A stretch of 64,000 nt of DNA from IMG/VR virus record IMGVR_UViG_3300008448_000002, positions 32,001 through 96,000 of that record. One strand, written 5' to 3'. This DNA comes from a virus. A program made the translations under genes and the position numbers. How positions within the stretch are numbered: position 1 is the first letter of the stretch; every line of letters begins with the position of its first letter. A model generated the notes under the pieces. It had not been told where the DNA came from, made no database searches, and was given only the letters and a program-made list of their open reading frames with translations. This document shows, piece by piece, positions 17,550-51,464 of the stretch.

Positions 17550-18539
17550 TTAAGAATTATTTTTACGAAGTTTTGCCAGAATATCCGCCGCTTTTGATTT
17601 TGATTCATCAACAGAAGTTTCTACTTGTGGTTGTTCATCACTTTGTACTGGTGTAACAGGTACTACAGATACCTTTTTCGCTGGAGCTGGAGCAACAGTT
17701 GTTTCTGCTGTTTCTTCAGAAGAGTTAAATCCCCAAGGTTTATAGTATTGTTCATACTTGGCGGGGTCATATGGCAAACCATTAACACTATCATGGAACA
17801 TTTCTACGATAATGTTCAATTCATTTGTCGTTGGTTTTTTTGGTATAAAACTCGACAAATCAAACAAACCATATTGTTCAATAGCATCAAGTTCAGCCTT
17901 AGACAAATCTCTTGAGGACATCGCCCAGCTTGATGAAGACCAGTCAGCATATTCACCTTTTTTTGTTTTCTTGATTTTGAAATCTCTACCACCAACATAA
18001 TCAGTAGGTAGATTTTCCATGTCGGGGTCTAACAATGATGTTTTGATTGGATTGAATACTTGTGGGGTGATTGAAAATCTACGAATAGGATTTTCTGGTA
18101 CACTTGGTTCTTGGAAAGGACTTTTTACTACGAAACCTTGGAAAATATAAGTATTTTTACGATAATATTTTCTTGCCAATTCATGTAGTTCATCATTATT
18201 GCTATTTGTTTTCCACCAAGGAGCAATTTCTGCCGTGATAGGGCATTTCAAACCTTTATCGCCATACATATCCACACAAGGCACTTGTACGAATACCTCC
18301 TTGTCTGTATCTCCGCCAACAACTCCAATAAATGGTAATTTGATAGTTTGGCGCAATGCCCAGAATGATAAAGTGTTATCAGGATTACCATCAGGTAAAA
18401 AGCGAACTACTGCTTCTTGTCCTTGTGTCATATCCCAAAACTTATAAATTGCGTTGTCTGTTGTTTTTGTGGATTGTTGGTCGGTATTACGCTCTTGTTT
18501 TTGTAGAGCTTCTCGAACTGCGTGTATATTTAGTGCCAT
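17550..18539 (-). CDS. gp32: Single-stranded DNA-binding protein, T4 gp32-like
   Basis: VVRFLPDGN, CPIT.E..W, GRDFKIKKTKKGEYADWSSSSW, YDP; acidic tail. Confidence 0.88.
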   Translation of the reverse strand: MALNIHAVREALQKQERNTDQQSTKTTDNAIYKFWDMTQGQEAVVRFLPDGNPDNTLSFWALRQTIKLPFIGVVGGDTDKEVFVQVPCVDMYGDKGLKCPITAEIAPWWKTNSNNDELHELARKYYRKNTYIFQGFVVKSPFQEPSVPENPIRRFSITPQVFNPIKTSLLDPDMENLPTDYVGGRDFKIKKTKKGEYADWSSSSWAMSSRDLSKAELDAIEQYGLFDLSSFIPKKPTTNELNIIVEMFHDSVNGLPYDPAKYEQYYKPWGFNSSEETAETTVAPAPAKKVSVVPVTPVQSDEQPQVETSVDESKSKAADILAKLRKNNS

Positions 18540-30355: not shown

Positions 30356-30421
30356 AAAATACTTGTTGACAAAGTAAAATAATGTGATATTCTCTTATTT
30401 ATCAAAGAGGGGAATATCCTT
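30356..30421 (+). promoter_or_regulatory. Early promoter plus stem-loop cassette, copy 1
   Basis: TTGACA(30366)-N16-TATTCT with extended TG, then CTCTT...AAGAG hairpin; homologous to 55817 and 57241. Confidence 0.75.
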
Positions 30422-30993: not shown

Positions 30994-31069
30994 AGGAGTA
31001 TAGCTCAACTGGTAGAGCGTTGGTCTCCAAAACCAAAGGTTGTGGGTTCAATCCCCTCTGCTCCTGCCA
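30994..31069 (+). tRNA. trnW: tRNA-Trp (anticodon CCA), 3'-CCA encoded
   Basis: Acceptor AGGAGTA/TGCTCCT, D-arm GCTCAACTGGTAGAGC, anticodon arm TTGGT-CTCCAAA-ACCAA, T-loop GTTCAATC, ends GCCA. Confidence 0.95.
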
Positions 31070-38304: not shown

Positions 38305-38316
38305 TATTTATAAATA
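38305..38316. promoter_or_regulatory. Palindromic bidirectional late promoter TATTTATAAATA
   Basis: TATAAATA present on both strands in the 38-bp gap between divergent genes. Confidence 0.65.
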
Positions 38317-38322
38317 GTATGT

Positions 38323-39468
38323 ATGAAGATACATCAAATTATAACTGAATCAATATTACTCGAATACAATATTATCAATAATGATAAAATTAATAATATT
38401 TTAGATTTATTTCTAAAAGAAAAAGAAGTTACTGATATTTTCGTAATTAATTGGTTAAAGAAAAAAGTGAACAATTATATCAATTCAACAGGAAAATTCT
38501 TGAATCTGTATAATCCAACAGAAGATGACAAACAAAAATATCCTTGGTTAAACAAGGCGATTGATAATAACCAAGAAATATATAGATTCACAGAGGTTGC
38601 TGGTTTTAGGATGAGAGTAGACTCGGTTATTGATTGGGTTAAGTCACTTAATAAAGAAGATGAAGACTACAAAAAACTAGACAGAATATCCTTTGAACAG
38701 GCACTAGAACGCCATGATAGATGGATGAAGAAGAACGATGGCATTCTTAGGGATGACAGTAAATTAGTAAAAACTATTTACTCTTTCCCCGATGGATATA
38801 AAATTGTAGAATTACCCGATGACTTCTGTAAAACTCGTGAAGGTCAATTGATGGGACATTGTGTTGGACAAGGAAAATATTCAGGAAAAACTATATTTTC
38901 ATTAAGAGATAGGAAGAATAATCCCCATGCCACATTAGAATTAAAAGGAAATCGCGTAGTACAACTACAAGGAAAAGAAAACAAAGATGTAGTTGAAAAG
39001 TATCATCCTTATCTACAAGAATTTTTTACTAATAGTGAGTATACGTTGACTGAAGGTTATTATACAAAAATTGGATTAATTAAACTCAATAATGAAGTAT
39101 ACAAAATAAATGAAATACCCGATGGACTAGTAATAGAAAATGAAACATACACTGATTTGGAAAATTGTGAAATTTTAACTAAATTACCGAATAATTTAAC
39201 AGTTAATCATTATTTGAATTTAAATGGTTGTATTAATTTAGTTAAAATTGGCGATAATTTGAAAGTTGGCACTAACTTAGATTTAGGTGGATGTGTTAAT
39301 TTAGTTAAAATAGGTGATAATTTAAGAGTTGGTCATGTATTAAACTTGAGTAATTGTACAAGTTTAGCCAGACTTCCATATGATACAAAAGTAGGTAGTT
39401 CTGTAATTTTAGATAGATATTCTAAAATTAGATTTCCAGAACACTTGAAAATATTGAGAAAAGATTAA
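38323..39468 (+). CDS. PcfJ-like domain + LRR-like repeat protein, paralogue 1
   Basis: REGQLMGHCVG...IFSLRD..N.PHATLE, then NLxVxxxLxLxxC repeats; MKIHQIITE leader. Confidence 0.75.
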   Translation: MKIHQIITESILLEYNIINNDKINNILDLFLKEKEVTDIFVINWLKKKVNNYINSTGKFLNLYNPTEDDKQKYPWLNKAIDNNQEIYRFTEVAGFRMRVDSVIDWVKSLNKEDEDYKKLDRISFEQALERHDRWMKKNDGILRDDSKLVKTIYSFPDGYKIVELPDDFCKTREGQLMGHCVGQGKYSGKTIFSLRDRKNNPHATLELKGNRVVQLQGKENKDVVEKYHPYLQEFFTNSEYTLTEGYYTKIGLIKLNNEVYKINEIPDGLVIENETYTDLENCEILTKLPNNLTVNHYLNLNGCINLVKIGDNLKVGTNLDLGGCVNLVKIGDNLRVGHVLNLSNCTSLARLPYDTKVGSSVILDRYSKIRFPEHLKILRKD

Positions 39469-41872: not shown

Positions 41873-43270
41873 ATGTCAAACATGAGTTATTTCTATGATG
41901 GGCAATTAAGAAGATATTTAACACAGTTCATACGCATGTTCAGTGAGTTTCAAGTTGCGAATGGATATAATCCCGATGGTACACCAATTTTAAAAACCAT
42001 TCCTATAAAAATGGCAATGACAAATAAGAATGTTGCCAGTATCATCGGAAATAATAGTGAAACAACCATAAATGCGACACCACAAATGAGTGTTTACATA
42101 GAAGGTATAACATTATCACCAGAGAGGCGGCAGACACCCAATCATACAAGTCAAGTAAGTGTTACTGAAAGAAGAATTGACGAAAGTGGTAATTATACAT
42201 CAGAAATTGGTAGAAGCTATAGTATAGACCGATACATGCCTGTTCCTTATGATTTAACTATGAAATTGGATATATGGACTAATAATGAAAGTCAAAAGCA
42301 TCAAATATTAGAACAGATATTGACTTTATTTAATCCAAGTCTTGATTTACAAACGGGAACTAATCCTATTGATTGGAGTAGTTTGACAGTTGTAGAATTA
42401 ACCGATATTAATTGGAGTAGTCGTTCGATACCCGTAGGGAGTGATATTGAGATTGATGTTTCCTCATTAAGTTTCAAAATACCCATTTTCATCAATCCAC
42501 CAGTAAAAGTTAAAAATCAACAGATTATACAACAAATTGTCACAAATATTCTTGCGAGTAGCAATATACCCGAAAAAGGTGAAAATGACGATATTATATT
42601 AGACTCCAATGATTTTATATCAAGACAGATTGTTACACCAGGAAATCATAATATACGAGTGGTTGGCGATACTATCACTTTATTAGGACAAAACGGTTCT
42701 GAAAGAGATGCGAATGGTGATTTATATAGTTGGAAAAATCTCTTAGATTATTATAGTGTATTAAGACCATCTGTGAGTCAATTAAGGTTATTGACAGGGA
42801 ATGATTCGGAAAACTATTCTGGTTCAATCATCGGCAAGATTGATTTTCATCCTAGCAATGAAAATCAATTAACATGGATTATTGATATTGATACTTTGCC
42901 ACAGAATACCATTTTACCTATAACAGCTATTATAAATCCCACTAAATCACATCCTTTAAGTGGATTAACCTTACCTTTAAATAATACTCAAACATACAGA
43001 TATCTGTTACTAGAAGATATTCCGAATAATAGTGCGGCATGGTATAATGGTTCAACATATTTTACGGCAAAAGAAAACGATATTATACAAATATCGTACA
43101 GTGTATCTTTTGGTTGGGTGGCATCAGTATTGTTTAACTCTTTCAATAACAATACAATACAATATGTTAAGAATAATTTTGATAATAAACAGCTAAAATG
43201 GAATGGTGAAAGTTGGTTATTTGCGATTGATGGCGAGTACAATCCAGGATTTTGGAAAATCAATTTATAA
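41873..43270 (+). CDS. gp15: Tail terminator / sheath stabiliser, T4 gp15-like
   Basis: YFYDGQLRRY..QF.RMF, MPVPYDL.MKLDIWT.N..QKHQILEQIL.LFNP. Confidence 0.85.
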   Translation: MSNMSYFYDGQLRRYLTQFIRMFSEFQVANGYNPDGTPILKTIPIKMAMTNKNVASIIGNNSETTINATPQMSVYIEGITLSPERRQTPNHTSQVSVTERRIDESGNYTSEIGRSYSIDRYMPVPYDLTMKLDIWTNNESQKHQILEQILTLFNPSLDLQTGTNPIDWSSLTVVELTDINWSSRSIPVGSDIEIDVSSLSFKIPIFINPPVKVKNQQIIQQIVTNILASSNIPEKGENDDIILDSNDFISRQIVTPGNHNIRVVGDTITLLGQNGSERDANGDLYSWKNLLDYYSVLRPSVSQLRLLTGNDSENYSGSIIGKIDFHPSNENQLTWIIDIDTLPQNTILPITAIINPTKSHPLSGLTLPLNNTQTYRYLLLEDIPNNSAAWYNGSTYFTAKENDIIQISYSVSFGWVASVLFNSFNNNTIQYVKNNFDNKQLKWNGESWLFAIDGEYNPGFWKINL

Positions 43271-44878: not shown

Positions 44879-45148
44879 ATGAGAATAACACAAGAAACTA
44901 GAATCGAGGCATTAAAACTCGCTATTGAGGCGCATAAAACCTTACCGCCAAGTGTAATTGTAGATGCGGCGAAGGTCTTTGAACAGTATATTACTGGATA
45001 TGATTCGCTAACCGATGAAGAAAAAGATGCTATACTTATCAAAAGAATACAAAAAGCACAAGAAAGAAAAATAATTCATGTTGAAGTTGGTGAAATGTCG
45101 CCCCATAAAGCAGAAAATTATATCGAAAATATTAAAAAGAATAGTTGA
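44879..45148 (+). CDS. Mini-protein 4 (89 aa) ending in RKIIHVEVGEMSPHKAENYIENI
   Basis: ORF track; its C-terminus is the closest match to the recalled T4-type portal motif. Confidence 0.7.
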   Translation: MRITQETRIEALKLAIEAHKTLPPSVIVDAAKVFEQYITGYDSLTDEEKDAILIKRIQKAQERKIIHVEVGEMSPHKAENYIENIKKNS

Positions 45149-45184
45149 CATTTGATATAATTTCTGTTAATTTATATAAATAAT

Positions 45185-45975
45185 ACTAGCGATTAATTTA
45201 ACTCATATTATAACTCAAAGAATTTCCCTCGTTTATTAATTAAGTTTGACATGCGGAACACCTGACGCAGCGTTGTAAGTCTATTAAGGGGCTAGACGAA
45301 TGGAAGCGACTACTATTACGCCCTTAGCGGGATACCGTAACAGTACAGAGTGCCATTTCCCGTGAAAAGGAAGAAAGACTCCGTTCATAAATGGATAGCT
45401 ATGTTTACTTAGTTTATTGGCCATTTATGATTTTGTAATTAAAAGTATTGCATTTATCATAAATCGGTAACATAAAAGTCGGCAGTACTATAAAATCACT
45501 CAACTGACTCCTTAATTGGAGAGGAATTGATGCTGCTTAAAGATTCTTGATTAGAATCTAATTTTCAAAAGAATTGTAATTATAAGAATTAGATATGTAG
45601 GATAAGGAAAATTAAGTTCTAAATCAGGGGAACATAGAATACTGTTGTGTTATGAATAAAGAGTATGCTCTGTCTGTGAAGTTATTGACAACATACAACA
45701 AAAATAGGCTTCTGCTGGAAGTTTGTTGGTCTATTTTTGTACCGCCCTAGAATGACGAGAGTTGTTCGGAACAAGTGTTAAAATTAGGTATACGGAGGGC
45801 CGCCTAGCAAGAAGAAACTTGTACACTAACAATTAATATTTCCAGAAGACGTGATAAAAAATGTTTTAAATGTTCCCTCTACATCTGTTATCGGCACTTT
45901 ATTGTGTTTTAGGCAGGTGTAGGGGGAAAAGACGTGCGCTACGCGCAAGAAAGCAAGAAAACCTAGTTTGGGGGG
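45185..45975 (+). ncRNA. Candidate large structured non-coding RNA
   Basis: No ORF of 60 aa or more; GC-richer than the flanks; TTGACA (45145) and TATAAATA (45175) upstream; many helices, including a 14-bp helix with two G-U pairs; ends in a 10-G tract. Confidence 0.5.
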
Positions 45976-46189
45976 GGGGTGATGTAGTAAGAATGCCTTG
46001 TATTAGTTGATTATTAGAAGTAATGAATTAAATTGATAAATTAAATAAAAACTTACCAAGTAGACCTGATGATTAAATAAAAACAAATTTATATAAAATA
46101 TATACTTTAAAATAACTCGCACTGATATATCACAAATTAACTAATATAAATTAATTACCTGATGTATATAAATTAACTTAAAGTAATTG

Positions 46190-46520
46190 CCATGTAAGGT
46201 AGCGTGACACGGCTTGCGCCATGCCACTCACAAGTTGTAAGTTAGATTGCTTCGGCTAACGCCTCGCCCTAACTTACAACTTAATATTTTCTTTATTGAA
46301 TTAATTTAATAAGTAATTAAAATAAACATATAAAAATACTCTTAGAACAAGATTGAGTAATGGTAAAAGTAATTAACAAGTAAGAAGGAGGGCGTAAGCC
46401 AGACTGAATTACTTGTTAATTAAGAGAGGTGCGAGGTCGTAGACCGAGTAGCTCGCTAGAACAGATTAACTAAGAAATTATGAATATAACCTGAAAATCA
46501 CTTAAGGACATCTATGTCCA
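46190..46520. other. Cluster of long perfect inverted repeats with GC mini-hairpins (origin-like or RNA structure)
   Basis: 14-bp IR 46232-46245/46269-46282 enclosing GCTTCGGC; 14-bp IR 46370-46383/46409-46422 enclosing GGCGTAAGCC; GGTC-GTA-GACC. Confidence 0.55.
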
Positions 46521-46550
46521 GATTTCAATCAAGTTATAAATATATGTAGC

Positions 46551-49500
46551 ATGACAAATAACACATATCACCTATCTGTAAATAATTCAAATATAGCTGA
46601 AATAAATTCAGGTGGAGAAATATACGAATTAATAACAAGTAATGGATTCCAATTAAAGACATATGAACATATACCCAATGTACTATCATTTACCTCTAGT
46701 GATTCTATAAGAAAAGAAATATTCGACAAGTCATATATAAAATACAAAACAGATGAAATATTTTTTAATCTCAATTCTGTTGTACTCAAGTTTAAAAAGA
46801 AATACTCATGGGGTCTTGACAGAATTGGCAAAAGAAACCCATTATTACAAAAGAAATACTTTGGAACGGAAACGGGTAAAGGAGTAAATCTATTTGCCAT
46901 TGATTCGGGTGTGTTCCATCAACATGATTCTGTTAATAAAAAAATAAATCTCACATTCGCATATGATGCGTTTTTTGATAATAATGATGTGAATTTTATA
47001 CTTCCATTTAACAATAATTCCTACATTGATTCGCATGGTACAGAAATGGCGAGTATTATACTTGATGGCGATTTTGGTACGACATCTAATGTGAATTATA
47101 TTCCTGTTCGTATTTTTAATGATATTGGTATTGCCTCATTGTCGGATTTGTTAGATTCTTGTAACCATATTATTGATACTCATTTATCTATAAACGTATC
47201 AACTCCTTTTGGTAACTCATTATATAAACCGTCTATTGTTAATATGCCATTCAGTACAAAAAATAAGGCATTGTTACTAGATGATGTTATGTCTGCTTTA
47301 TTGGCAAATAATATTCATGTTGTTACGAGTTCTGGTAATGATAATGATGATGCTTATAATTATAGTCCTCAATCTGCTGGTGTATCAAGAAATAAAGTTT
47401 TAATCAGTGGTAACACATACAGAGTAGACACAAGTATTAATTATACAAAAAAGCCTATTGTGGTAGGGGGCTGCGATAACCCAAGTATAGAAATCATTCA
47501 AAAAGATAAAGTATGGAAAGAAGATAATTTTAATGGGTCAAATTGGGGAGAGTTTGTTGATATACTGTGTCCCGCCAAGGATATATTAGTAGGAAGTTTA
47601 TCTTTTTCTGGTTCAAATTGGAATAATTCTATAAGGAATTATTATACATATAAATCTGGTACAAGCTATAGTAGTGCCTTTTGCTGTGGTATTTTGGCAA
47701 TGTATTTACAAAAAGAAAAAAATCTCACAACAACGCAATTATACAATAAATTATTAAGACGTTCAACCATAGGAAGTTTAGAGATAGATGATTTATCTAA
47801 TTTAAGAGATAATGAACAGAATGATATATTTATTAATCCTGTTGTTGTCACACCAAACAGAATAGGGTATATTTGGTATACGCCTATTTTGATTAACTTT
47901 GATACAATTAATACAATTATAGTTGATGAAAATACAGAAAATGATATTAAAATAACAGCGATATCAACTGATAGTTTTAATGAAAAACAAAAAGTTAGCT
48001 TTTTTCTTGGAACAGTAACTTCTCCTATACCAACTTATACCGATTTAAATATAACAGCATTATTCGGCGATATTTATGAAGGTAATGATATATTTGGAAA
48101 CCTTAATATACAAAGTAATTTTGTAACTGAGGATACTGTATCTACCATTACTATTACTGTTGTTGATGGATTTTCGGATGATTATAGACACTTTCAGACT
48201 TTATCCATACCTATCAATATAAAGAATCTTTCTGTTATGCCTACATGGTTATTACCAGTAGAAAGTAATTTGGGTGATATATCACAGGATGATAATATTG
48301 ATATTGTGTTTTCTTGTAGAGATTTAACAGACGGTTCGCCTGTAACATACACTATATTACCGTCAAATGAAGTATTGCCTATTGGATTAAGGTTTCAAAA
48401 TCTAGTAGATGGAACATTCAAGATATTTGGTACTGTTGGGGCATTAGATAAAAAGTTAGAAAAATATGAGTTTTTCATTAGGGCAAAAACATCTGTTGGT
48501 AAATTTTCTGATAAATATTTTTTCTGGAATACTAATATTGTAAATATACCACAAGAGTTTGATACCTTGTGGACAGATACTCTTCCAAGTACAACTGTTA
48601 ATACTAATGTTTACTATAATTTAGGAACATATCCAAAAAACACACCTCTTGGAATAAACTTACTAATTAATTTATTGATTTATAACCCTGATAATGACCC
48701 GTTGATTATAAAATTATTTAAATCACCTGATATTACTACAAGTTTTGGAAAACTACCCCTCGGTTTAAAACTGAATACTGAAAGTAGACGAATTGAAGGC
48801 ATCCCCTCTGTTAGTATTTCTGGTGGCACATATTATTTTAAAATAACATTAGGAGATGGAGAGTTTGTTACAAATGGTTATTTTAGTATAACTATATCTA
48901 ATGATGACATAGGATTAATACAAGACCCCAGTGATATAACATGGACTACCCCCGCTGGATTCATTGGCGAAATATATGAAACGTATCCATCACACCTTAG
49001 TGTTTTGGCTAAAAATAGTGCCAATGGAAGAATACAATATATATTATCAAGTGCCAGTAACCCAATGCCGCAAGGATTAAGCATTGATGCCAATACTGGA
49101 TATATAGTTGGTAATGCTCCCTATGTTTCTGGAACGGCAACATATAGTATAACAGTATCAGCTTACAATGAGTTTGTTTCGGTTGATAGAACATTTACTT
49201 TTACTATTATATCCATATATGATACTCAAAATGTCATAAGTATTGATGTTTTATTAACGGGATTACCTACCAAAGATAGATTAAATCTTGTTAGATTACA
49301 ATCGTTTATAAACAAAAATAATATATTTAGAGAAGACGATGAAAACTTTGGTATTAAACAAGACTTGAGAATGTATCTTGTGGCAGGATTAAATTCTGTT
49401 TCAGATAGTGTAGTTTATGCCAAATTAAAAGATTATCATCAGGATTTATCGGTTAAGTTTGGAAAATTGAATTACCAATCTGTGACAGATACAGTTGGAA

Positions 49501-50378: not shown

Positions 50379-51464
50379 ATGGCATCAACAATAACACCTG
50401 ATTCAATAGACCAGAATTTTCCTATTCCTAATGTTGACAATGATAGTCAGGGTTTTAGAACAAACTTTGCTATAACAAAACAGAGTCTTTTGACGGCAAA
50501 GCAGGAAATTAATGCCATACACGGTCAAACGATAAGTATTTCTAGTTCTACTTTAACAGGCTCTAGTACATCTTTTAATCCACAAAATCCTGTTGTACTT
50601 ACATTAGATTTAAACAATCTTTCACCATCAAGCGCAGGAGTATATACTACAAGCGGTAATAACTTATCATTGACAATTGATACCAAAGGAAGAGTTACCA
50701 ACATAACACCAACTGCTATCTCATTGCCTTTACTAAATCCAGGAACATATAATCAATCTATTGATAGTAATGGTAATTTGATTGGTACAAACATTACAGT
50801 AGATTCCTTGGGTAGAATTACTACTATAGCATCGACAACTATAGCAAACTATGGACTTATTAATAGTGCCTTGACTAAAGGAAATTTAATTGTTGGTGAT
50901 ACCTTAAATAAAAGTTCAGCGTTACCTGTTGGAAATGATGGACAAGTGTTGGTGGCAAGACCCGCCGAACCACAAGGGGTAAAATGGGAAGATGCCGTGT
51001 TATCTGGAGGCGGCTCCTCAATTGAAGAAACTGTAACCTATACTCCATCGAACGCACAAACGCTTTTTACTTTACCGTCTGATTGTCAATCTGTAGTGCG
51101 AATGTTAATAAATGGTCAAACCACAATTTCTTATACTTACAATAACACTACAAAGGTATTAACATTTGACCCAGTTGGAAATGGATTCGGTATTGAAACA
51201 ACCGATGAAGTTGTTGTTAAGTATAAAACCTCAACTTCTGGTGTAAATAATTTACTATTTACAATAGCACCAACTACAAACCAAACATTATTTCAACTTC
51301 CTTTGAACGCGAGTATTGTAGTGGGCATGTTTATAAATGGACAGGGTACTAATGATTATAGCTTTAATGCCAACTTAAAGCAAGTGACTTTGAATACATC
51401 AATTAATGGTTATACTATAGAAGCCAATGATGAAATATTATTTTTATATACTCCGACTTCATAA
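50379..51464 (+). CDS. Virion structural / fibre-like protein
   Basis: IDQNFPIPNVDNDSQGFRTNF N-terminus; TIDTKGRVT fibre repeats; two beta-sandwich repeats at the C-terminus. Confidence 0.6.
   Translation: MASTITPDSIDQNFPIPNVDNDSQGFRTNFAITKQSLLTAKQEINAIHGQTISISSSTLTGSSTSFNPQNPVVLTLDLNNLSPSSAGVYTTSGNNLSLTIDTKGRVTNITPTAISLPLLNPGTYNQSIDSNGNLIGTNITVDSLGRITTIASTTIANYGLINSALTKGNLIVGDTLNKSSALPVGNDGQVLVARPAEPQGVKWEDAVLSGGGSSIEETVTYTPSNAQTLFTLPSDCQSVVRMLINGQTTISYTYNNTTKVLTFDPVGNGFGIETTDEVVVKYKTSTSGVNNLLFTIAPTTNQTLFQLPLNASIVVGMFINGQGTNDYSFNANLKQVTLNTSINGYTIEANDEILFLYTPTS

Follow-up and report, generated by a model that had tools for sequence, protein, structure and literature searches.

This report concerns a stretch without genes, 1402 nucleotides (nt) long, in the genome of a T4-like jumbo phage that is represented by the IMG/VR record IMGVR_UViG_3300008448_000002. 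The record has 194,657 nt and a CheckV completeness of 51%. The window analysed here is the 64,000-nt stretch that comprises bases 32001-96000 of this record, and all positions are those of the window unless record coordinates (G000:C1) are indicated. An earlier prediction, made from the sequence alone and referred to below as the original prediction, placed a highly structured non-coding RNA of about 800 nt at 45185-45975, which is the front two-thirds of the gene-free region. We conclude that the most fitting description of the gap is a control region that is non-coding and composite, lies where genome modules meet and is seen in this phage alone. Near its start is a copy of the repeats found in the leader of the phage's own gene 32, which encodes a single-stranded DNA-binding protein (SSB).

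The genes next to the gap and the features within it are collected in Table 1. The neighbouring genes are all on the + strand, and gp15 is 46-47% identical to the gp15 proteins of the nearest relatives, which include Agrobacterium phage Atu_ph07.

Table 1. Genes and predicted features at the gene-free locus, in the order of their window positions (ORF, open reading frame; bp, base pairs; GC, G+C fraction).
Feature	Position	Strand	Remarks
gp15	41873-43270	+	Upstream of the gap
GGCT-family gene, then orphan Panacea gene	Between gp15 and the mini-ORFs	+	
Four mini-ORFs mimicking a portal segment	44411-45148	+	Directly before the gap
Early-type sigma70-like promoter	45132-45173	+	Consensus match; A-rich upstream stretch
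Promoter elements TTGACA, 17-nt spacer, TGn + TAATTT	45145-45150 and 45165-45173	+	
Gap without genes	45149-46550		1402 nt
Alternative extended -10 TGATATAAT	45153-45161	+	
T4-type late promoter box TATAAATA	45175-45182	+	Exact; next ORF start 1369 nt away
Unstructured 5' end of putative transcript	45189-45262	+	Minimum free energy -3.1 kcal/mol, z +1.41; 185/200 shuffles fold at least as well
Copy of gp32-leader repeats	45195-45224	+	TAACTCA at 45199 and 45211 plus flanks
GC-richer non-coding body	45263-45865	+	Overall folding at chance level
Word TCATAAAT, three times	45385 (+), 45421-45431 (inverted), 45456 (+)		Spacing of ~35 nt
Hairpin	45873-45928	+	17-bp stem with G.U pairs, 3x3 internal loop, apical 5-bp stem
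G10 run	45970-45979	+	Sole G or C run >7 in the record
AT-rich zone	45988-46190		GC 0.185-0.195; among the record's 7 most AT-rich 200-nt loci
Direct repeats ATTAAATAAAAAC	46040 and 46072		Within the AT-rich zone
Repeats with 18-nt period, ~3 units	46121-46178		72% match
Hairpin of 10 bp, tip GGC-TTGC-GCC	46204-46227		Pairs better on - (2 G.U there; A.C mismatches on +)
Perfect 14-bp stem enclosing GGC-TAAC-GCC mini-hairpin	46232-46297	+	U-rich tail follows
Second perfect 14-bp stem, enclosing GGC-GTAA-GCC	46370-46457	+	GC-rich hairpin 46431-46456 follows
Hairpin with 3' strand over late promoter TATAAATA (46535-46542)	46485-46550	+	Before the S8-protease/Ig ATG at 46551
S8-protease/Ig protein, 1274 aa	46551-50375	+	Directly after the gap

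The gap is non-coding. Each of the three stop codons is present in 2-31 copies in each of the six frames between 45149 and 46550, so no reassigned code opens it, and an alternative genetic code was ruled out on these grounds. The longest frame-free stretch of the record is found here (1360 nt vs 593 nt for the runner-up), and outside of the gap the record is tightly packed with genes. A hexamer coding score that was trained on the phage's own long genes stays at or below 0.06 in any frame across 45100-46450, whereas the flanking genes have scores of 0.3-1.15. Since the gap has no hexamer coding signal, a recently decayed gene or the remnant of a paralogue was also ruled out. No match to the gap was obtained by tblastn with all 627 ORFs of the record plus the portal protein, nor with the small ORFs of the syntenic Atu_ph07 array. 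The nearest ATG after the promoters opens a frame of four codons, and neither a Shine-Dalgarno sequence nor an ORF follows. The original prediction was therefore right in describing an ORF-free gap of about 1.4 kb in a densely coded genome and an interval that is richer in GC (0.364 over 45185-45975) than its flanks (0.307 and 0.301); every sequence word that it listed is also present at its position.

The gap is also covered, at 100% identity, by a 7.7-kb contig that comes from an independently assembled NCBI metagenome, and an assembly artefact, including one that involves the G10 run, is thereby excluded; the identical copy supplies no variation. A diversity-generating retroelement template, a trans-antisense target and a repeat family were rejected because second copies in the record are limited to words of at most 14 nt. 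Likewise, a tandem duplication (46176-46365 and 46362-46552) was rejected because the word shared by the two parts is merely 19 nt long.

The early-type and late-type promoters at the beginning of the gap overlap (45145-45182), and both are directed into non-coding DNA. As the original prediction reported, its interval begins after TTGACA (45145) and TATAAATA (45175-45182), and both are present. With its TTGACA-N17-TAATTT core, its TG extension and its A-rich stretch, the early-type promoter is similar to the early promoters of this phage, a class that is marked by an A-rich stretch, TTGACAA and a TG-extended -10. Members of this class have an A-rich upstream stretch, TTGACAAAGTAAAAT..., and then TGTGATATTCT; examples are located at window positions 30366, 55872 (-), 57295 (-), 75679, 81999 and others. 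The record contains 38 TATAAATA boxes, and 14 of them are located 7-39 nt upstream of ORF starts, which indicates that the phage uses the box as a functional late promoter. At 45175 the box is an orphan, as there is no gene behind it. From these elements, early and late transcription of the + strand into the gap is plausible.

The same promoter elements are found in other settings in the genome. For example, an analogous arrangement of TTGACA plus the box precedes a pair of tRNA genes. There are two tRNA clusters, one with two genes (L024:402-562; G000:C1:~104600-104760) and one with four (L025:142-536; G000:C1:~108040-108435), and the two-gene cluster is 26 nt behind a TTGACA-N17-TATAGT promoter that has TATAAATA within its spacer. 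In several late genes, the ATG follows TATAAATA after 7-9 nt and a Shine-Dalgarno sequence is absent (46535-46553, 38309-38325 and, on the - strand, 21234-21220), which would imply late mRNAs that are leaderless or nearly so.

In the copy of the gp32-leader repeats, the first repeat is found about 11 nt downstream of the predicted late start, within the unstructured 45189-45262. Twenty-seven nt are common to 45195-45224 and to positions 18580-18551 (- strand), which belong to the leader of ORF 17550-18539, and this ORF encodes a gp32-family SSB (PF08804, 34.4 bits). Across the 194.7 kb of the record, tandem pairs of TAACTCA are present in two places, namely at 45199/45211 and in this leader. 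The local alignment has a score of 42, compared to 21.2 +/- 2.7 in shuffled sequences (maximum 35; 0 of 1000 reach the observed score), and the 27-nt match is the record's best non-self tile. In gp32's own leader the repeats are located between a 5' hairpin and the ribosome site.

The gp32 leader of this phage (window 18537-18620, - strand) was compared with the gp32 leaders of four Atu_ph07-type relatives (L119, L120, L121 and L122). The five leaders have a common plan, which consists of a late-type box, a 5' hairpin, two or three tandem repeats of 7-9 nt and a Shine-Dalgarno sequence. The repeat words are lineage-specific, for example TAGCACAA in Atu_ph07 and GCTCAAA/GCCCAA in others. Because the four relatives keep the plan with words that are specific to each lineage, the repeats are considered a conserved regulatory element, and the leaders have the look of a gene-32 operator that has been conserved while co-evolving with the factor that binds it.

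One of the closest known systems is the gene 32 operator of T4, in which autorepression depends on a folded 5' element as well as on unstructured UUAAA/UAAA repeats (PMC535899). The gp32 leaders of this phage and of the four relatives follow the same plan. As in the T4 and RB69 operators (PMC535899), the copy in the gap consists of short tandem repeats in an unstructured A/U-rich stretch just after a predicted transcript start, close to the 5' end of the putative RNA. Unlike them, it is not accompanied by a folded nucleation element, a ribosome site with a start codon or an ORF, and its word is TAACTCA rather than UUAAA. Because no ribosome site or ORF is behind it, the copy cannot itself be a translational operator. 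A RegA-type repressor was not found in the half of the genome that was examined.

With regard to folding, the claim of a highly structured RNA of about 800 nt did not hold. The 791-nt interval as a whole has a z score of -2.73 on the + strand and -2.62 on the - strand. This signal comes from one hairpin, the last in the interval, because its removal (45185-45865) leaves a z of -1.11, with 4 of 20 shuffles folding equally well; hence about 680 of the 791 nt fold at the level of shuffled sequence. Windows of 150 nt have z scores near 0 at 45200-45350 and 45500-45800. Consequently, the interval is not supported as one large globally folded RNA like GOLLD or ROOL.

The helices of 7-10 bp on which the original prediction was built are individually unremarkable, since the longest stem with G.U pairs allowed averages 11.2 bp in dinucleotide shuffles; with G.U allowed, stems of 9-10 bp are at chance level. 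Perfect Watson-Crick stems of at least 9 bp are moderately enriched (three vs 0.24 in shuffles, 0 of 200), and in this respect the gap is in the top ~4% among the record's 800-nt windows. These perfect stems are strand-symmetric, and two of them come from the word TCATAAAT. Two mutually exclusive helices had also been noted; they arise because TCATAAAT occurs in direct, inverted and again direct orientation, and this triple word could equally be a set of DNA sites. A more general lesson is that a list of helices of 7-10 bp in AT-rich DNA is no evidence for an ornate RNA.

The hairpin at 45873-45928, which was the last helix of the original prediction, is a different case. Its stem with G-U pairs on the + strand was confirmed at 17 bp; stems of at least 17 bp are found in 2 of 300 shuffles, and the longest - strand stem at this place has 10 bp. 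The 117-nt fold around it has a z of -4.0 on the + strand vs -2.7 on the - strand. Thus, the argument that G-U pairs point to RNA is valid for this hairpin alone. It may be an RNase III-type or 3'-stabiliser hairpin, which it resembles.

Within the gap, folding is best at 46180-46550, which is beyond the interval of the original prediction. Positions 46180-46300 have a z of -3.35 and positions 46300-46550 a z of -5.59 (0 of 200 shuffles). None of 300 shuffles reaches the 14 bp of the two perfect stems, and three of the 13 GGC-N4-GCC words in the record occur within 190 nt, each on the tip of a hairpin. The structure at 46232-46297 is possibly the 3' end of the transcript. As a whole, the hairpin cluster does not point clearly to one strand, because the hairpin at 46204-46227 pairs better on the - strand.

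At the gathering threshold, Rfam 15 has a sole match, a tRNA at 30994, and none in the gap. At E<=10, with short inputs included, the output is noise, such as U6atac (13.7 bits vs a threshold of 33), miRNA precursors and dCoV-3UTR (20 vs 175). Accordingly, GOLLD, ROOL, OLE, HEARO, raiA and every other Rfam 15 family have no match to the gap near the gathering score, and ARAGORN finds neither a tRNA nor a tmRNA in the interval. Group I and group II introns, tmRNA, RNase P and tRNA were rejected for want of a covariance-model or ARAGORN match, in agreement with the original prediction, which had seen no group I, group II, tmRNA or RNase P core.

Homologues, which the original prediction had proposed to collect from related phages, were not found in any of the collections searched. 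There was no match by nhmmer or BLAST over 80 gp15 loci of relatives (930 kb), by BLAST and nhmmer in four whole related genomes and their gaps, or in 50,697 phage records searched with blastn. Viral contigs that were scanned for shared 16-mers gave 17 matches, all by chance, and a search of viral contigs with the flanking proteins did not find a homologous locus. Two metagenome pattern scans gave nothing, plus one unrelated contig of GC 50% (L205). Near gp15, the relatives have no frame-free gap larger than 416 nt. The suggestion that the RNA may represent an unclassified family is consequently correct in that no Rfam 15 family matches even at E<=10, but with no homologue a family cannot be demonstrated. 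Among 5.8 billion proteins, no relative of the S8 protein has more than 25% identity.

Two short pieces of the gap, 45254-45280 and 46231-46250, each match the same 36-nt stretch of Atu_ph07 (27 of 29 nt and 19 of 20 nt). A 29-nt, 90% match to Atu_ph07 257374-257402, in a gene beside the protease homologue, was considered and rejected; its E value is 0.004 within that genome and 0.3 against the whole phage collection. The match is probably due to chance because of E=0.3 and because this phage's own orthologue of the gene, ORF 50379-51464, does not have it.

The reading that we favour, tentatively and at a probability of roughly 0.35, is that transcription of the gap yields a non-coding RNA, which would serve as a decoy target for whatever factor recognises the gp32 operator. 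The region would be transcribed throughout infection as a non-coding RNA, the 5' end of which would compete for the factor on the gp32 leader; by analogy with T4, this factor would be gp32 itself. A T4-like gp32 would repress its own translation by loading cooperatively onto the unstructured repeats, so the decoy RNA would raise the gp32 level at which synthesis stops, or free gp32 would control the RNA. The hairpin at 45873-45928 would be a 3' stabiliser or a processing site that protects or defines the 3' end. The decoy is supported because the operator copy is unique, is beyond chance and has gp32 as its partner ORF, and a + strand transcript is supported because the hairpin has its G.U pairs on the + strand only and the neighbouring genes are all on this strand. 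Known protein-titrating decoy RNAs, such as CsrB and RsmZ for CsrA and 6S RNA for RNA polymerase, use many sites or mimic a whole structure, and they are conserved. The putative RNA is like them in that it would display a protein's natural site and so relieve repression of the real targets, and unlike them in that it has one two-repeat site and no conservation. We know of no described decoy for a phage SSB.

Several observations weigh against this reading. The copy does not have the 5' hairpin that is present in every gp32 leader, 45189-45262 does not form stable pairs, and nucleation in T4 depends on the folded element. The four relatives carry the repeat pair at gp32 alone, so there is no conserved class of decoys, and with no homologue, selection is not apparent from anything but the match itself. 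A recent illegitimate recombination at a module junction could have left the match as a scar, and gp32 autoregulation in this clade is assumed from T4. In addition, a decoy needs about 70 nt, so the reading has no role for the ~600-nt GC-richer body, for the G10 run and the AT-rich repeats, or for the hairpin cluster. An R-loop-primed replication origin would account for more of the odd features, and it would cover the G10 run, the AT-rich zone and the palindromes better.

As an origin of this kind, the gap would produce a transcript from the promoter pair that primes leading-strand synthesis, as at T4 oriF and oriG or as ColE1 RNA II, itself an R-loop-type origin primer. At the border of an AT-rich zone where the DNA unwinds, the G10 run would give a very stable rG:dC hybrid. 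Proteins would bind to the GGC-N4-GCC palindromes and to the direct repeats, and the nucleation of SSB on the displaced strand would take place at the gp32-type repeats. The layout has some resemblance to such origins: the record's sole G10 abuts one of its seven most AT-rich 200-nt loci, which contains direct repeats, three of the 13 GGC-N4-GCC words are within 190 nt, and the region is behind an early-type promoter (by consensus). T4 origins consist of a promoter and an A+T-rich unwinding element, and oriE has an early promoter with iterons, whereas oriC may need a late promoter (PMC3016281); in the gap, too, a promoter points into non-coding DNA with an A+T-rich zone, a G-run and direct repeats like those of oriE. 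However, the T4 unwinding element is within ~100 bp of the promoter (PMC3016281), and here the strongly AT-rich zone is 800 nt away from it; the first 74 nt of the putative transcript are also AT-rich and unpaired. Comparable AT-rich stretches are ordinary promoter regions elsewhere in the record, the 18-nt repeats are weak (72% match), and no sequence similarity was found. The region is not accompanied by an initiator gene, and the relatives do not have a homologous locus. GC skew tracks gene orientation and has its minimum at 38 kb rather than at the gap; it was rejected as an origin marker because it follows transcription only. On balance, we consider an origin unlikely. The readings are not all mutually exclusive, and a non-coding RNA with a gp32-operator decoy at its 5' end that tunes SSB might also seed an R-loop at the G10 run and AT-rich zone, coupling the SSB supply to origin firing; this combination seems quite unlikely to us. 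If the decoy or the R-loop reading is true, the RNA would be the first phage non-coding RNA that sets the level of the phage's own SSB, or the first to mark an origin in an Atu_ph07-type jumbo phage.

Neither of these functions is needed if the gap is a relic spacer, i.e., non-functional DNA at a module junction in a hyperplastic islet, with an orphan promoter and a leader fragment copied in by illegitimate recombination and with hairpins that are merely terminators or insulators between early accessory genes and a late structural gene. The gp13-gp15 and protease/fibre modules that flank the gap are ~150 kb apart in Atu_ph07, where the same place is occupied by a dozen small ORFs and no gap; such an arrangement, together with the singleton status (no homologue in the phage collection, relatives or metagenome scans) and the chance-level folding of most of the interval, would be expected of a relic. 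Neutral DNA in a phage of 32% GC should drift to the AT-rich values of intergenic DNA (0.19-0.25), yet the interval has 0.36. The stop density is random-like and there is no old frame, which would make any decay ancient, yet the 27-nt leader copy is nearly exact. Four hairpin features are also far beyond chance, and the record is otherwise tightly packed, so a relic is possible but doubtful. The ornate RNA of the original prediction, that is, one RNA of ~800 nt (or ~1.1 kb) in a new family with a tertiary fold that is invisible to energy-based prediction, is very unlikely. It would share with GOLLD and ROOL its length, its location in a phage, its non-coding nature and a GC content above that of the AT-rich DNA around it (PMC12286853). 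It would be driven by promoters and would include the + strand-specific hairpin and the excess of perfect stems, and pairing would be possible between C/U-rich words (45223, 45357 and 45872) and G-rich ones (45286, 45626, 45921 and 45970). Unlike them, the interval has no covariance-model match and no homologues, hence no covariation, and most of it folds at chance, with the same global z on both strands; its z of -1.1 over 681 nt compares with -7.4 for another candidate in the same genome. Finally, 46300-46550 by itself might be a cis-acting leader that locks translation of the S8-protease/Ig gene on pre-late read-through transcripts, with late transcripts escaping because their start, at the TATAAATA that precedes the ATG by 9 nt, is within the structure. 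The T4 genes e, soc, 49 and I-TevI have such inhibitory leader structures (PMC3014915), and by analogy the hairpin at 46485-46550 could be a lock of the gene e type, as it has a late promoter inside a stable structure directly upstream of a late gene start. The 251 nt fold with z -5.59 and better on the + strand, the late box is covered by predicted helices (46485-46494/46529-46538 and 46326-46332/46541-46547) that stop 3 nt short of the ATG, and there is no convincing terminator between the upstream genes and the S8-protease/Ig gene. Unlike the T4 leaders, the start codon is unpaired in the prediction, the gene does not have a Shine-Dalgarno sequence to hide, and a far smaller structure would be enough for a lock, without the two 14-bp stems that carry GGC-N4-GCC tips. 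A lock of this type is silent on 45185-45975, and we regard it as improbable.

Overall, the locus is a singleton without conservation. Its value is therefore that of a lead, and the copy of the gp32 operator is its most testable feature.

The genes that flank the gap display some unusual patterns of their own. The mini-ORFs before it are tightly packed and encode 43, 58, 41 and 89 aa. The last of them matches positions 192-231 of Portal_T4 and, over 38 aa, has 50% identity with the complete portal protein that the phage encodes elsewhere (G000:C1:121298-122701), and the portal motif is weakly present in at least one further mini-ORF. An intron that splits the portal gene was ruled out, because the complete gene is present at the position just given and the 89-aa ORF is a stand-alone mimic. 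On the other side of the gap, the protease gene is followed by a 361-aa ORF (50379-51464) with a fibre-type motif (...TIDTKGRVT...). This ORF is the orthologue of an 876-aa Atu_ph07 protein (33% identity over 191 aa), the gene of which adjoins the Atu_ph07 'extracellular serine proteinase'. The protease-fibre pair is therefore syntenic with Atu_ph07 although the surrounding modules are rearranged; the dozen small ORFs mentioned above are upstream of the Atu_ph07 protease homologue.

The genome has another region that would be a better candidate for a large, highly structured RNA. It is located outside the window (L026:1025-1860; G000:C1:192524-193359), and it is ~830 nt long and poor in ORFs, with a GC of about 0.45 and repeated GGTGCGG...CCGCACC closing words. 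The fold has a z of -7.43 on the + strand and -4.70 on the - strand. This region has no Rfam match at E<=0.1, no tRNA and no nhmmer match in four relatives, and we consider it to be this genome's real candidate for an RNA of that kind. A candidate small RNA of ~180 nt is located nearby on the - strand (L026:335-555; G000:C1:~191835-192055); it has a TTGACA-N17-TATAAATA promoter and ends in a GC-rich hairpin (GACGGGTC...GACCCGTC) followed by a T-run.

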